A DNA stretch of 32,000 nucleotides from Candidatus Harpocratesius repetitus (GTDB taxonomy: Archaea > Asgardarchaeota > Lokiarchaeia > Sigyniarchaeales > Promethearchaeaceae). Below are positions 1 to 6,966 of this stretch, in pieces. Position numbers and translations under genes: made by a program. A model generated the notes under the pieces. That model did not search any database. It saw nothing but the letters and a program-made list of their open reading frames with translations, and was not told the origin of the DNA. Position 1 is the stretch's first letter. Each line of letters begins with the position of its first letter. The DNA lies in contig JAIZWK010000001.1 of assembly GCA_021498095.1 (NCBI GenBank), forward strand, positions 2,370,001-2,402,000, given 5' to 3'.

Positions 1-268
1 TCGAAACTCGAACTTCATATTTACTTGCTAATTCATTTGCTGTAATTGCTTTCATTTTTAAAATATCTTTTCGTAATTTCTTTTCTAAAGCTAAAGGAAG
101 ATATGGATCACGTTGGATTGTTTCTAAAGTAGCCACTTTTCCGTATTTCTTATTCATTTTTCGAACTTGGGTTTCAGCTTGGACTTTATTGATCTTATCA
201 TCATCCATAACTAAATCTTCGGATTCTTCTTGTTCTTCTTCCGAATCAATTTTTTTCTTCTTTGCCAT
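1..268 (-). CDS. rps25e: 30S ribosomal protein S25e (eS25), 3' end truncated by the window edge; not in the ORF track
   Basis: Manual translation from ATG at 268: MAKKKKIDSEEEQEESEDLVMDDDKINKVQAETQVRKMNKKYGKVATLETIQRDPYLPLALEKKLRKDILKMKAITANELASKYEVRVS, open to position 1. KLRKDILKMKAITANELASKYEVRVS resembles the eS25 winged-helix core. Confidence 0.8.
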   Translation of the reverse strand, partial: MAKKKKIDSEEEQEESEDLVMDDDKINKVQAETQVRKMNKKYGKVATLETIQRDPYLPLALEKKLRKDILKMKAITANELASKYEVRVS

Positions 269-484
269 CGTACAACACATCAAATATGGTATTTATATCT
301 ATGAAGGCTCAATGTTGCATAATTAAAAAATTTTGGCTTTTCTCAGCAAAATATTACTCATTTGATGAATTATGTGCATCTAATTCATCAGTAATAAATG
401 GAAAGGAAGACTAATTATCTTAATAATAAATGAAAGAAAATATGTTTAATCTTAAGACTTTCAATTAATTGGAGAATTGATTTA

Positions 485-1138
485 ATGGGGAAAAATCGGC
501 AAGAACAGAAAAAGAAAGCTTATGAGTTTTTTATAAAACATCAGCGACCAGAAGAATTTGCTAAAGATCCCCTCATTTATTATACTCCAGAACGAGTAAA
601 AGAGTATGCTGAATCTAAGTCTTTAATGCGAATTCAAGAAGGAATTACTAAAAGGTGCGTTGAATTAGTTCATGCTGCGCCACCTGCACTTTTTTTGGAT
701 ATTGGGATGGGATGTGGATTTGCATCGGTATTCTTAAATTTAAAAGGATTTAGAACAATAGGATTGGATATAAATCGTTTCTTCCTTTCTTATTATTCCT
801 TACCTGAATTAAATTCAATACAAGCAGATATGCGGGAATTTAGATTACGTCCTCGCTCTATAGACTTTATTATTTCGATTTCTGCGGTTCAATGGATTTT
901 GGCTGAATCAGATGAACAAAAACGCCGACAATATCTTAAAGATTTCAGTCAATTTTGTGCAGAAATTTTAAAACCTCAAGGAAAATTAATTTTTCAATTT
1001 TATCCCAAATCAGATGAAGCCATGATGGAATTAGGACACGAATTTAAAGAAATAGGTGCATTCGAAGGAAATTTTGTGATTGATAATCCGGAAAACCCCA
1101 AAAAAAGACGAATTTTCTTACTTCTTGATAGATTATAG
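485..1138 (+). CDS. Class I SAM methyltransferase, Bud23/WBSCR22-like (paralog 1)
   Basis: RPEE..P..YY N-terminus, LDIGMGCG motif I, ISISAVQW, QFYPKSDE and VIDNPENPKKRRIFLLL mirror recalled yeast Bud23 motifs (RPEE..P..FY, LDIGCGSG, ISISAIQW, QFYPKNDD, VVDDPESKKNKKYYLVL). Confidence 0.8.
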   Translation: MGKNRQEQKKKAYEFFIKHQRPEEFAKDPLIYYTPERVKEYAESKSLMRIQEGITKRCVELVHAAPPALFLDIGMGCGFASVFLNLKGFRTIGLDINRFFLSYYSLPELNSIQADMREFRLRPRSIDFIISISAVQWILAESDEQKRRQYLKDFSQFCAEILKPQGKLIFQFYPKSDEAMMELGHEFKEIGAFEGNFVIDNPENPKKRRIFLLLDRL

Positions 1139-1175
1139 AAAAAATTTGCTGATAGAGAGATGGAGAAAAAAAAAC

Positions 1176-1886
1176 ATGGTGAAGAAAAAGACAAAAAAAA
1201 GATTAAAAAAAAAAAAACCTATCAGCAAAAATAATCGACCTATGATCCATGAATATTTTGGCTTAGATGCTGAAGCATATGCTCATTCACAGTGGATGGA
1301 ACGAAATCAGAGAAAAACAACTCTGAAAGCCATTGAATTATTAAATACTTCACCGTACTTTGAAATGGAATATAATTCTGAAACAAAAAAAGAAGAAATA
1401 GGAGATTCATACATTGAATCTAAATTATGTCTGGATTTAGGATGCGGTTCTGGGTTTTCGAGTTTAGAATTAATTCATTTCTTTTCGCGGGTCATTGGTT
1501 TGGATTTTTCAAGAGATATGATTAAATTTATTCCTAATAATAATTCTCTTCATTTAGTTCAAGCAGATCTACGGGCTCTACCATTTCGCTCCAATCTTTT
1601 CTCTACGGTTATATCAATTTCTGCATATAATTTTGTGAGTGAAGGTGCTAAAAATAAAAATCAAATTAATCGACAGATTTACCAAGCTTTTAAAGATCTC
1701 ATTTATTGTATTGGTGATTTAGGCAAAATTGTAATTGAATTTTATCCCACTCCCTTAGAAGAAGAAATCTTTTTTCAAGTTTTAAAAAAATTCCCCATAC
1801 AAGGTGGAATGTTAAAAACAGATCCTGGAACACGTAAAGAAAAAAAATTTTTACTATTGCGAAAAATTTCATCAGATCTCGATTAA
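1176..1886 (+). CDS. Class I SAM methyltransferase, Bud23/WBSCR22-like (paralog 2) with Lys-rich N-terminus
   Basis: Q.KTTLKAIELL, LDLGCGSG, LDFSRDM, ISISA, EFYP, GG...DPGTRKEKKFLLL. ATG at 1176 is preferred over the TTG at 1080, which overlaps the upstream gene. Confidence 0.75.
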   Translation: MVKKKTKKRLKKKKPISKNNRPMIHEYFGLDAEAYAHSQWMERNQRKTTLKAIELLNTSPYFEMEYNSETKKEEIGDSYIESKLCLDLGCGSGFSSLELIHFFSRVIGLDFSRDMIKFIPNNNSLHLVQADLRALPFRSNLFSTVISISAYNFVSEGAKNKNQINRQIYQAFKDLIYCIGDLGKIVIEFYPTPLEEEIFFQVLKKFPIQGGMLKTDPGTRKEKKFLLLRKISSDLD

Positions 1887-2170: not shown

Positions 2171-2476
2171 ATGCAAAGAGCCCGCATTCGTTTAAGTTCT
2201 CCTGATTTAGATGCATTACAAGAAGTTATTAATGAAATTAATCGCGTTGTAACCAAAACTGGTGTAAAGCAATACGGTCCTGTTCCATTACCAACAAAAA
2301 AATTGACAATTCCAACACGAAAAACTCCATGTGGTCAAGGAACATCAACATGGGAAACTTGGGAGCTTCGGATTCATAAACGCTTGATTGATATTAATGC
2401 TGATGAACGATCCATGATATTGATTATGAAGATCATTTTTCCAGAAAGCGTTTTAGTAGAAATTGAATTAATCTAA
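2171..2476 (+). CDS. rpsJ: 30S ribosomal protein S10 (uS10), archaeal type
   Basis: ARIRLSS, GPVPLPTKKL, RKTPCGQGTSTWETWELRIHKRLIDI. Confidence 0.97.
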   Translation: MQRARIRLSSPDLDALQEVINEINRVVTKTGVKQYGPVPLPTKKLTIPTRKTPCGQGTSTWETWELRIHKRLIDINADERSMILIMKIIFPESVLVEIELI

Positions 2477-3686: not shown

Positions 3687-5153
3687 CAGTCTTCAAGGTT
3701 ATAATCTAAACGAATCAATACGACAATAAGCGAAGACCGAAACAGTTTTGAAGGGAAAGGAGAAAATTTATTTGATAGATTATGAGTTCTTTTACAGAAA
3801 CGACGATTCCCCAATCGTCCCTCCCACCTTTCCCTATAAATTTATTTCTCCGTGGAGAATTTAAATCTTATGTTAACAAGTTGGTGGGTCGATCGGAAAT
3901 CGCTCAGAAATTTCGTCCAAGACTGTATACCTATTGTGATTTCATTTTAGTCAAACTATACGCTTTAGCCAGCAAGAAATCCATCGAATATGCTTCAAAT
4001 TATCTTAAGAAAAAACTTTCTAAGCACTACCGAAAGAAATTTAATCTTAAATTGAAGGACTTTCGCGATGGAGTTCGTAAGAGACGGTTAGTCCCTCATC
4101 AGACTGATGTTGATAAATTCTTTAGGCTATTATCTGAGAAAGATATTCACTTTATCTTCGGAAACCTTTTAAACCATGTGAATCAAAAGATTCGAAGTCA
4201 TTCGATTGGTGGGTCAAAAATGCGGTTGCTGGTCGACAACACAGAGTATCCGTACTATGGAAAACCTAGACCGCCTTTTGAAGTTGGAACTCATAAACAA
4301 CCGGGAACTCGTAAAGCCCGTTTGTTTCAAGGCATAGCAATTCAAGGATGTGGTATGACTCTGTTTTCAGAATTCCGACTCCTTCGCCACAAACAATACC
4401 GTGCAAAACATATTGGACTTTCCGCAAAATGGCTCAAATTTCAAGGATTTAACCTCAGTTATGCGCTAATGGACCGCGAATTCTACCGCGCTTCGCTTAT
4501 CAAAGAATTAAAAGATCAAAAACTTCCCGTTTTAATTCCTGCTAAAAAATTCCATAAAGTTAAGAGGCTTTTCAAGGAATTTTTGTATGGTAAAAAGGGA
4601 TTATGTGAAAAATATCTGTTCGCACAGAGTCCAAAGACCAAACCTTGGCCGAGCTCCGTTTATGTGAATTTAGTATTAACTGCACATCGAAGTAAATCAG
4701 CTTTGCAGGTTCGTGAGCAATTCCGCAGAAAAAAACTTGCGCTTGATGAAGCGGTTGAAGAAATTGAAGGTTTTTTTACCACTCTTCATCCTCGAAAGAA
4801 TTTAGCTCGATGGAGCTGCTGGCTCTCCAGAACTTATAAAAAAAGATGGTTCGAAGAAACTAGATTTCGCATGCTTAATTCTATCCATGAATCGTTCCGA
4901 AATCACCATCCCTTCCCACAATTAGCTCAGATATATCTGAGAGCATATATTTTTAACTGTTGGCAATTTTACCGCAAACAACAAATCAAATGTCACACTA
5001 AATTATGGGAAACGAGTTTAAATGTTTATCAATCAAGCTTAACTGAGGTGATCGAGAGGGAGATGCTTAAAAATACTAAAGAAAATGTGTGGTTTTTACA
5101 AAAAGAAAAAAGGAGGTTGTTCTTTGAAGTTTAGAACATAACCTTAAAGACTG
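3687..5153 (+). mobile_element. Insertion sequence, ISH3-like (IS4 superfamily), 1467 bp
   Basis: 25-bp terminal inverted repeats: left CAGTCTTCAAGGTTATAATCTAAAC (3687-3711); right GTTTAGAACATAACCTTAAAGACTG (5129-5153), whose reverse complement matches at 22/25. They enclose one transposase ORF. Confidence 0.9.
3782..5134 (+). CDS. DDE transposase, ISH3/IS4-like
   Basis: VDNTEYPYYG, MDREFY and YKKRWFEETRFR (YREK-type) motifs; stop codon lies inside the right inverted repeat. Confidence 0.9.
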   Translation: MSSFTETTIPQSSLPPFPINLFLRGEFKSYVNKLVGRSEIAQKFRPRLYTYCDFILVKLYALASKKSIEYASNYLKKKLSKHYRKKFNLKLKDFRDGVRKRRLVPHQTDVDKFFRLLSEKDIHFIFGNLLNHVNQKIRSHSIGGSKMRLLVDNTEYPYYGKPRPPFEVGTHKQPGTRKARLFQGIAIQGCGMTLFSEFRLLRHKQYRAKHIGLSAKWLKFQGFNLSYALMDREFYRASLIKELKDQKLPVLIPAKKFHKVKRLFKEFLYGKKGLCEKYLFAQSPKTKPWPSSVYVNLVLTAHRSKSALQVREQFRRKKLALDEAVEEIEGFFTTLHPRKNLARWSCWLSRTYKKRWFEETRFRMLNSIHESFRNHHPFPQLAQIYLRAYIFNCWQFYRKQQIKCHTKLWETSLNVYQSSLTEVIEREMLKNTKENVWFLQKEKRRLFFEV

Positions 5154-5190
5154 GAAGAAAAAAGAAAAAAGAAAAAGTTCATTTATTCAT

Positions 5191-6966
5191 TTATTTTCGG
5201 CGTTTTATGTAATACACTATAGCAAACAAGGAAAGAAGAGATGCAAAACTAATCATGCTTACAGGAGCTCCGGGGATATTTGAGAAAAATCCTCCATCTA
5301 AATCACGGTTTTCTCCTATTTCTCCATCTTGTATTTGCTCAGCTGTTGGTGTTTCATATCCCTCACGAACGATTGATTGAGAAATCGAATACGTAACAGT
5401 TTCGCCATCAATATCAAATTCTGTTATTGATGTGTTATCAAATGCAATAGTTAAATCGATATATTGAGCAAATGAAGCTAAAACCATATCACTATTATAT
5501 TCAATTGCAAATGAAATTGAAACTGCTGAGTTGTTGTAATCAATGCCTTGATTTACTAATTGAGTTGCTAGATCTTCTTCTAAATCTCCATCAGTATAAT
5601 TTAAAAGATCTTGTAATGCATCAAAATCGATTCCACTTGACGACCAAACAAAGCCGATTGATTGCTTATCAACATGGAATGATGAGATTCCTCCAATTTC
5701 AAACAAATCTTGAATAGAGTGATCAAAAACAGATATATCTTCTCCTTCTTGTTCTGCGTATTGTGCAGAAAAATTATAGACATCTAATCCCCAATTATAC
5801 CAATCTAAAAAGCTAAAATCTGTAGGGTAACATAGTTCAACGCTTGAAAATAGACTGAATATTGAGTAATATCCTAAAAATCCATTAAGGGGTATTGGGA
5901 GATAATGATTGTCTGGTAATGCTGGAAATACGGTTCCATCATCAAGGGGGTCTACAGATAAATCAATTGCGTCTGTAACATTATCTAAGTAAGTGTGAAT
6001 TGATATAAGTAAGTCTTCAAATTCTTCAGCTTCAACTTCATTTAATTCAGTAATTGATTCGTTTAAGCCAGATTGAACATCATCATAAAAATCAGGATCA
6101 AAATATGGTTTAAATGTTGAATTTAAGTCTTCAAGTTTTCCTGCCAAATATGCTGAAGGTAAAACCCAATTATCGTCATTTCCCATCATAAAAGATCCTT
6201 CGATAATATCATTGGACATATTATCTTTCTGTAAATCAAGATTATAGATATCACTTATGCTGAATTTTAAATCAACTTCCGTAGAGATAAAATCTAAAAG
6301 ATCCCCCATAAAATGTGAGAAATTAAAACTATTGGAGAAAACATCTTGACCTTCATTACTTTCAATTTCATCGACAATATAGCCTCCTACTTCATTATAA
6401 AACTTTGAACTAGCTTGTAAATCAATATTATTAATCGCAGTATATATTAAATCGTCACCAGTTTCAATTCCATAACTAAATTTAGTTTCTCCTTTTGGAT
6501 CAAAAATAGTTATTCTAAGTGTATAAGTTGCATCATTTGTGTTCCAAAAAGAATTATGGCATTGAATGTATATCATTAATGTAAATTCATCTGCATAATA
6601 TGAAACCTTTCCCTTATTTTCATAATTATCATCAGTATAGTATGAAAAAGATTCACTATCTAAATAGGTTTCATTTTCATTATACAATTGAAGATAAAAG
6701 TAATTTGCATTATCTGAATCAGTTACTTCCATTTCTACAGAGATTGCCATCCCTTCTGTAAGTTCAATTTTAAACCAATCATCATCATCTGTTGTTGATG
6801 ATAAAGTTAAACCAGTATGTTCTCCTGTAGTGATAAGAGCCGCATTCTCTAAATCATTATTTGGTTCATAATCACTATCATCTAGTGCACGTGTATAGAT
6901 GGGTGAAAAATAACTTGCCATCAATAGCACTAATAATACTGTTGATATTTTTATTGTTTTTCTCAT
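5191..6966 (-). CDS. Secreted acidic surface protein with N-terminal PPC-like domain and C-terminal Loki-CTERM-like sorting signal
   Basis: Signal peptide MRKTIKISTVLLVLLMAS; DYEPNNDLENA and DDDWFKI motifs typical of PPC domains; C-terminus IPGAP + hydrophobic helix + KRRK. Confidence 0.75.
   Translation of the reverse strand: MRKTIKISTVLLVLLMASYFSPIYTRALDDSDYEPNNDLENAALITTGEHTGLTLSSTTDDDDWFKIELTEGMAISVEMEVTDSDNANYFYLQLYNENETYLDSESFSYYTDDNYENKGKVSYYADEFTLMIYIQCHNSFWNTNDATYTLRITIFDPKGETKFSYGIETGDDLIYTAINNIDLQASSKFYNEVGGYIVDEIESNEGQDVFSNSFNFSHFMGDLLDFISTEVDLKFSISDIYNLDLQKDNMSNDIIEGSFMMGNDDNWVLPSAYLAGKLEDLNSTFKPYFDPDFYDDVQSGLNESITELNEVEAEEFEDLLISIHTYLDNVTDAIDLSVDPLDDGTVFPALPDNHYLPIPLNGFLGYYSIFSLFSSVELCYPTDFSFLDWYNWGLDVYNFSAQYAEQEGEDISVFDHSIQDLFEIGGISSFHVDKQSIGFVWSSSGIDFDALQDLLNYTDGDLEEDLATQLVNQGIDYNNSAVSISFAIEYNSDMVLASFAQYIDLTIAFDNTSITEFDIDGETVTYSISQSIVREGYETPTAEQIQDGEIGENRDLDGGFFSNIPGAPVSMISFASLLSLFAIVYYIKRRK

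Follow-up and report, generated by a model that had tools for sequence, protein, structure and literature searches.

Bud23-family methyltransferases encoded beside small-subunit head-protein genes in a Loki-type archaeon

Does the eukaryotic enzyme Bud23 have a true counterpart in archaea, and if so, what would it do there? This question is raised by two adjacent genes, here called P0001 and P0002, at the start of a 32,000-nucleotide stretch of archaeal DNA (contig JAIZWK010000001.1, positions 2,370,001 to 2,402,000; the whole stretch is referred to as the window). Both lie between the genes of the ribosomal proteins eS25 and uS10 which, like uS7, are proteins of the small-subunit head. Bud23, also called WBSCR22, is the 18S ribosomal RNA (rRNA) (guanine1575/1639-N7)-methyltransferase (KEGG K19306). 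Neither a 2017 review nor a 2018 Haloferax study found a homologue of Bud23 in archaea (PMC5372719, PMC6144793), in agreement with an earlier note on this DNA which described the enzyme as regarded as a eukaryotic 40S biogenesis factor. Here, we show that P0001 is a true Bud23 counterpart. Furthermore, we consider it rather probable that P0001 and P0002 are two anciently diverged Bud23-family methyltransferases acting on the small subunit, whereby P0001, together with a Trm112-like protein, would methylate N7 of a guanine in the subunit head.

The earlier note had assigned both open reading frames (ORFs) to the Bud23 family on the strength of motifs beyond those generic to S-adenosylmethionine (SAM) enzymes, and this assignment stands. 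P0001 (485..1138, + strand, ATG start) encodes a class I SAM methyltransferase of 217 amino acids (aa), whose best match among all PDB sequences is yeast Bud23 (E 1e-24, residues 20-214). P0002 (1176..1886, + strand, ATG start, 236 aa) also finds Bud23 as its best PDB match (E 5e-15). For both proteins, human WBSCR22 follows as the next match, while generic methyltransferases score far lower. When 1.84 billion representative proteins were searched exhaustively with HMMER, P0001 returned only 498 matches at E<=0.001, which indicates a narrow family with a similarity beyond generic SAM motifs. Among these matches are proteins of eukaryotes, 270-300 aa long, with M-S-R-P-E at the start and the Bud23 tail D-S-K-Y-T-G-R-K-R at the end. 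When eukaryotic Bud23 (P0275) was searched against the whole genome, the P0001 gene was the top match (E 2e-21), while P0002 was recovered only at E 1e-6, level with an unrelated methyltransferase. The reciprocity with Bud23 that had been suggested as a check therefore holds for P0001 and not for P0002. The same division applies to the motifs. P0001 possesses RPEE, ISISA-V-QW, QFYP and DNPENPKKRR; ISISA, (Q/E)FYP and the terminal basic strand are found in both proteins as the earlier note had it, but RPEE is confined to P0001.

The predicted fold of P0001 leads to the same assignment. The AlphaFold (AF2) model has a predicted local distance difference test score (pLDDT) of 90.8 and a predicted template modelling (TM) score, pTM, of 0.87. 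Its eight best fold matches in the PDB are all Bud23/WBSCR22 chains (E 1e-18 to 1e-15), with TM scores by target of 0.76-0.91 and a root-mean-square deviation (rmsd) of 2.0-2.3 Å. Generic methyltransferases appear only from rank 9 onwards, with E 1e-9 and a TM score of about 0.5. Two residues of the SAM site, the glycine of motif I (G-x-G-x-G) and the aspartate that follows strand 2, are the same in 27 of 27 aligned family members, among them P0001 (G76 and D95) and P0002. Substitutions at these two positions in human WBSCR22 (G63E and D82K) yield a catalytically dead enzyme (PMC4472018). The C-terminal extension of the eukaryotic proteins (PF12589, WBS_methylT) is absent from P0001, P0002 and every archaeal member seen, as the Pfam scan and the alignment confirm for the two window proteins, for which the earlier note had already reported its absence. 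This extension is a eukaryotic accessory outside the catalytic domain, and crystals of that domain were obtained in its absence (PMC5372719).

P0002 differs from P0001 at the signature positions. N-F replaces Q-W after ISISA-x, E-F-Y-P replaces Q-F-Y-P, and R-P is retained while RPEE is absent. The dipeptide after ISISA-x separates the two types almost completely: the Q-W family has Q-W in 81 of its 82 hits, and the N-F family has N-F in all of its 119. Among the eukaryotic rows counted, 31 of 36 possess Q-W, and the pattern found no dipeptide in the remaining five. The Q-W type, comprising the relatives of P0001 together with DPANN, Bathyarchaeota and eukaryotic Bud23 sequences, shares the motifs RPE, ISISA-x-Q-W, Q-F-Y-P and D-N-P-x-N-x-K-K-R-K, while the relatives of P0002 have ISISA-x-N-F and E-F-Y-P and no RPEE. 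Two further features of P0002 were observed, a Lys-rich N-terminal tail (residues 1-20; window 1176-1240) and, behind the first helices, about 23 inserted aa (residues ~60-82; window 1350-1420). Both are shared with its orthologue in Candidatus Harpocratesius and absent from the other N-F-type members, the insert being genus-specific.

To place the two types, a maximum-likelihood tree of 93 rows (LG+C20+F+G4) was rooted with five other Methyltransf_11 proteins of the same genome. The Bud23-type family separates from these five proteins. The eukaryotic sequences form one clade (support 100/99), as do the Asgard Q-W-type sequences (100/97) and the N-F-type sequences (99/98), and the Asgard Q-W clade is nested with a clade of Bathyarchaeota type (96/95). 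In the free tree, the eukaryotes join the N-F and Odin-like clades with weak support only (84/69), and an approximately unbiased (AU) test does not reject their union with the Asgard Q-W clade (p 0.39). The backbone of the tree names no archaeal clade as the sister of eukaryotic Bud23, and we claim no donor lineage. Since the Q-W and N-F clades are separate and well supported, and since the two genes show no linkage in the sister family, which belongs to the same order, the duplication is ancient. P0002 represents a separate sister family and not a recent duplicate, and the earlier description of the gene as duplicated at this locus is not supported as worded. It is the tandem that is particular to the family of the window's genome.

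The conserved neighbours of these genes are the strongest clue to function, and they suggest a role at the small subunit. The earlier note had pointed to the position of the two co-directional ORFs between eS25 and uS10. Both flanking genes are confirmed by profile matches, and the linkage is conserved and no local accident. The 5' part of the eS25 gene (1..268, - strand) is divergent from P0001 and continues beyond the window start; the full-length product has 118 aa and scores 40.1 bits on Pfam Ribosomal_S25 (cut-off 28.8). The uS10 gene (2171..2476, + strand; TIGR01046 uS10_euk_arch E 3e-37, Pfam Ribosomal_S10 E 1.5e-24) starts 284 bp downstream of P0002 in the same direction. The head-to-head pair of eS25 and a Q-W-type gene (44-76% identity to P0001) is present in 10 of the 10 loci of the window's order that reach the eS25 side, while the contig of an 11th locus (L008) ends before that side. 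Within the window's family, the Q-W-type gene is followed by the N-F-type gene and then directly by uS10; in one member, all four genes are co-directional. The sister family has the N-F-type gene at another place, on a different contig from the Q-W type and with conserved neighbours of its own, and uS10 is found within ~0.1-3 kb of it in 10 of 12 loci examined. Three Odin-like genomes (G013, G001 and G035; L108-L110) possess a single Q-W-type gene, which stands head-to-head with uS7 (Pfam E 9e-44).

Another gene was observed in the sister family 3 bp after the N-F-type gene and ahead of uS10, encoding a radical SAM protein of 356-380 aa (L118:3562-4632, with equivalents in L119, L120, L123, L125 and L126). 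It has only a weak AmmeMemoRadiSam-like match, and it was rejected as a required partner, as the same query found none in the window's genome. Rio kinases are small-subunit maturation factors, and a gene for RIO1 kinase directly precedes the gene of a natural fusion protein of 412 aa (P0211), in which an N-F-type domain is joined to a Q-W-type domain, on a 5.6-kb JGI metagenome contig. A 428-aa open frame of a Micrarchaeota genome (G320) was considered as a second fusion and rejected, since the match covers its C-terminal half only.

Trm112 (TRMT112) is the activator of Bud23, Trm9, Trm11, Mtq2 and METTL5, so a Bud23 counterpart raises the question of a partner. A search for Trm112 together with a co-folding prediction, both proposed in the earlier note, gave a candidate. 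The genome contains one convincing Trm112-like gene, P0206 (206 aa; G000:C1:3304901-3305521, L001:1042-1662), located outside the window, with 46.8 bits on Pfam Trm112p (PF03966; cut-off 22). A second Pfam Trm112p hit (L002) was rejected as the C-terminal zinc ribbon of an unrelated 224-aa protein. The ends of P0206 align to the 60-aa Trm112 of Archaeoglobus, and a mostly helical insert of about 130 aa lies between the two knuckle halves. The signature C11-P-I-D14 ... C164-x-x-C167 is kept in 36 relatives, and the long-insert form is retained in Loki-type genomes and Sigynarchaeota. The spacer of the knuckle thus measures about 149 residues, compared with 19-36 for Trm112 (PMC5372719). The model of P0206 (pLDDT 95) finds eukaryotic two-domain Trm112 as its best, albeit weak, fold match (E ~0.02, over ~190 columns; TM 0.45-0.56 by target), while archaeal Trm112 aligns over only ~30 columns.

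The predicted complex of P0001 with P0206 scored 0.93 against 0.01 for the best control, a score that solved Trm112-methyltransferase structures may inform. Of 80 solved complexes, 58 attained this mark, as did 2 of 110 mismatched pairs. Three runs agree in >=96% of contacts, with a pLDDT of 94 for the partner. In the predicted interface, the best-defined contacts are those of residues 110-115 of P0001 with residues 177-181 of P0206, strand to strand, which corresponds to the beta-zipper known from Bud23 and Trm112 (PMC5372719). Because similar complexes have been solved, the result demonstrates likeness and is not proof of binding. We consider this protein the most likely partner of P0001.

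Combined, these results suggest the following mechanism for the pair. Strand beta-3 of P0001 would zip onto a strand of the zinc-knuckle domain of P0206, and the pair would then move a methyl group from SAM to N7 of a conserved guanine in the head of the 16S rRNA, late in 30S assembly. We take this guanine to be the equivalent of yeast 18S G1575 and Escherichia coli G1338. Two 16S copies were located, by a pattern with Y after one with the bacterial base had found none, and both contain this guanine within GUGGAAUCCC, where GGAAUCC has it as its second G. As the guanine is universally conserved, its presence is uninformative. P0002 retains the SAM-binding residues but differs at the two Q-W positions, at which neither the Q-W-type members nor the eukaryotes vary, and it is therefore most likely an active methyltransferase with another target, probably also in or near the subunit head. 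Family membership, fold, conserved synteny and the existence of a Trm112-like gene are thus established, while we infer the rRNA target, the N7 chemistry, the timing and any activity of P0002.

Before alternatives are weighed, the distribution of the family has to be considered. Within the window's phylum, 301 genomes were searched with a profile; they are samples and in many cases incomplete, and a single-protein search agrees with the result. The Bud23-type family was found in 6 of 6 genomes of the window's own family, in 67 of 69 genomes of the sister family (~30% G+C), in 3 of 4 genomes of the Odin-like group (1.3-1.4 Mb), and in the only genome of each of two single-genome families. The remaining 25 families, with about 220 genomes, gave no full-length match. 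The profile search found none in families sampled at 76, 21 and 19 genomes, and one family of 28 genomes showed weak partial matches in two. Outside the phylum, two Micrarchaeota loci contain full-length Q-W-type genes with 44-46% identity to a metagenomic clade, and they were the only true full-length relatives among the matches listed in a degenerate-pattern locus search with 12 sequences, the rest being generic SAM motifs. A Q-W-type gene is carried by 15 of 201 sampled Micrarchaeota genomes (~7%), and one further Q-W-type member comes from a Bathyarchaeota record. The family is thus patchy across Archaea and not specific to Asgards, and the proposal of an Asgard precursor made in the earlier note finds no support in this distribution. 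The patchy presence also means that the function is dispensable for archaeal ribosomes in general.

One label among the relatives deserves mention. P0119, labelled Heimdallarchaeota at NCBI, is 100% identical to a protein of a genome of the window's order with ~30% G+C (G204:C13, L117:2861-3535). Owing to this clash, submitter labels of these metagenome-assembled genomes are unreliable for statements on distribution. Other relatives carry Thor- or Hermodarchaeota labels.

Several points weigh against a head-guanine methylation by P0001 and P0206 and against a small-subunit role of both methyltransferases. Modification data are lacking for the 16S rRNA of all Asgards, and studies of other archaeal 16S rRNAs have to date not reported 7-methylguanosine (m7G) at this position (PMC5372719, PMC6144793). 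Haloferax Trm112 binds many unrelated class I methyltransferases (PMC6144793), so binding to Trm112 does not identify a substrate. In addition, the predictor may have reproduced solved Trm112-methyltransferase structures when it passed this complex, and a neighbourhood of ribosomal-protein genes suggests a function but falls short of proof. None of the evidence bears directly on the target of P0002. Finally, most of the Asgard families sampled, and likewise most Micrarchaeota, do not have the family.

One alternative is that the archaeal enzymes do share descent with Bud23 but act elsewhere, on another rRNA position, a guanine in transfer RNA or a neighbouring ribosomal protein, the G1575-type specificity being an acquisition of eukaryotes. 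We regard it as unlikely, albeit as the most serious competitor. The missing report of m7G at the equivalent 16S position (PMC5372719) would be expected in this case, a patchy distribution fits an accessory modification, and the N-F paralogue demonstrates that the family can change its pocket residues. On the other hand, the archaea analysed belong to lineages without a reported gene, so that a missing mark says little, and the Q-W type has every family-invariant residue of eukaryotic Bud23 in a fold that superposes at ~2 Å.

The arrangement of the two genes raises a second alternative, in which P0002 would be the partner subunit of P0001 in a heterodimer, as in other two-subunit RNA methyltransferases. 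This appears improbable. The tandem (37-bp gap) recurs in each of the other six genomes of this family, and the fusion P0211 shows that both types can naturally be joined in a single chain. However, genomes scored as 100% complete with one type exist on either side (N-F only in G071 and G174, Q-W only in G030 and G113), the Odin-like genomes are single-copy, the sister family has the two genes on separate contigs, where each keeps conserved neighbours of its own, and P0002 has kept a canonical SAM site. The two types are therefore probably not obligate partners. The tandem and the fusion do speak for a pathway shared by both types.

Very little speaks for the third alternative, an acquisition of the archaeal genes from eukaryotes by horizontal transfer, which would deprive them of any bearing on the origin of Bud23. 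It could account for the patchy presence over archaeal phyla, but the eukaryotic clade contains no archaeal sequence, the archaeal sequences form several deep and well-supported clades that track lineages, the eukaryotic extension is lacking in all archaeal members, and the synteny with archaeal ribosomal-protein genes is conserved. The idea that these are ordinary small-molecule methyltransferases of the UbiE/BioC kind, with a likeness to Bud23 through generic SAM motifs alone, can practically be dismissed: Pfam and NCBIfam do give both proteins generic families only (Methyltransf_11/25, for P0002 at E ~1e-12, with weak BioC and UbiE matches) and some sources label relatives UbiE, but the NCBIfam matches are far below their cut-offs (BioC 36.7 against 184.95 bits), the similarity of P0001 to Bud23 in the PDB alignment spans the N-terminal helices to the last strand, the Bud23 fold matches are nine orders of magnitude better than those of any other methyltransferase, and both the narrow family of 498 matches and the tree, in which the family is separate from the other Methyltransf_11 proteins of the genome, contradict it.

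Clear archaeal counterparts with a predicted Trm112 partner, placed at conserved positions beside head-protein genes, alter the picture of a eukaryote-only Bud23. Previous work had come close to this result. A 2021 survey of ribosome biogenesis factors leaves Bud23 out of its text and states that none of the factors is exclusive to Asgards; its Supplementary Table S10 lists BUD23 in the unfiltered Asgard, Euryarchaeota and TACK sets, as Asgard-only in the abundance-filtered set, and no longer after the domain-architecture filter (PMC8481954). The automatic annotation of IMG names several relatives '18S rRNA (guanine1575-N7)-methyltransferase', in some cases with K19306. In the literature searched, we found no work that treats Bud23 or WBSCR22 together with Asgard archaea or Lokiarchaeota. 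The value of our finding is thus tempered, since orthologue profiling had already caught an Asgard BUD23, albeit only in a supplementary table, and since IMG assigns K19306 to some relatives. It is further tempered as the family is not restricted to Asgards and the phylogeny cannot show an Asgard source of the eukaryotic gene. New are the two ancient paralogues, including a second, uncharacterised family of the N-F type, the separate linkage of each to head-protein genes, and the long-insert Trm112. The catalytic module would then be archaeal in origin, and the eukaryotic novelty would consist of the C-terminal extension and the processome-linked non-catalytic role.

A broader hypothesis, which we put forward only tentatively, is that the Bud23-Trm112 m7G step on the head guanine at the P/E site pre-dates eukaryotes, which inherited it from an archaeal ancestor, and that Loki-types have kept the enzyme, a eukaryote-like two-domain Trm112 and an Asgard-specific paralogue that places a further mark in the head near uS10. 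If true, cultured Lokiarchaea would carry rRNA modifications never seen in archaea. In any case, the analysis predicts a modification of 16S rRNA that can be tested, as Loki-type strains are now in culture. One of these, Lokiarchaeum ossiferum, possesses both genes (NEF87_000158 and NEF87_000157).

Some features of the locus and its genome remain to be described. The genome is a single contig of 4.36 Mb with ~30% G+C; its nearest named relatives belong to Candidatus Harpocratesius (83-84% protein identity), a genus of the Loki-type family Promethearchaeaceae. The start of P0002 was taken as the ATG at 1176, because the TTG start at 1080 given in the list of ORFs would overlap P0001. The two genes are then separated by 37 bp, and a GGAG stands ~12 nt ahead of the ATG in both. 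The short gap and the two GGAG sequences make co-transcription likely, and P0001 and P0002 probably form an operon, as far as can be read from the DNA. The AT-rich region between the divergent eS25 and P0001 genes (269..484), read directly from the sequence, presumably holds the promoters of both. Upstream of the window and downstream of eS25, there is a 273-aa ORF with a G-D-D-D motif (L003:2-820, - strand), which adjoins eS25 also in four other loci (L005, L006, L007 and L113). A 450-aa ORF (3782-5134, + strand) lies in the sole part of the window with raised G+C (0.356 in 4001-6000 against ~0.29 elsewhere) and may be a mobile-element gene.

In comparison with known Bud23/WBSCR22 proteins (K19306; PDB IDs: 4QTT/4QTU and 6G4W), P0001 has the same class I SAM fold, including the helical segment at the N-terminus, and shows 31-32% identity to yeast Bud23 in the structural alignment. 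It shares RPE, ISISA-x-QW and QFYP with them, together with a last strand of basic character and the two residues of the SAM site, glycine in motif I and aspartate behind strand 2, and the predicted contact with Trm112 likewise runs through strand beta-3. P0002 has the same SAM site and, according to its sequence, belongs to the same fold family. Eukaryotic Bud23 ends in a basic C-terminal extension of 70-90 aa, which serves nuclear and processome-linked roles. P0001 and P0002 have short basic N-terminal tails instead. Archaea are not known to have the setting of nucleus, U3 and Dhr1 in which Bud23 plays its non-catalytic role. Having no basic C-terminal extension, P0001 is expected to be a plain modification enzyme.

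The Trm112-dependent methyltransferases of Haloferax volcanii, such as Hvo_0019 (PDB ID: 6F5Z), are class I enzymes like P0001 and bind Trm112 through a beta-zipper (PMC6144793). The fold match of P0001 with Hvo_0019 is, however, at the generic level (E 6e-9, TM ~0.55, rmsd 5.5 Å), and the Haloferax enzymes are without the Bud23 signature motifs. The insert of P0206 is much longer than the central domain of eukaryotic Trm112 and has no equivalent in the 60-aa euryarchaeal form. At the same time, P0206 resembles Trm112 in the C-P-x-D ... C-x-x-C signature of the archaeal forms, as given in the 2017 review (PMC5372719), and in presenting the same predicted binding surface.

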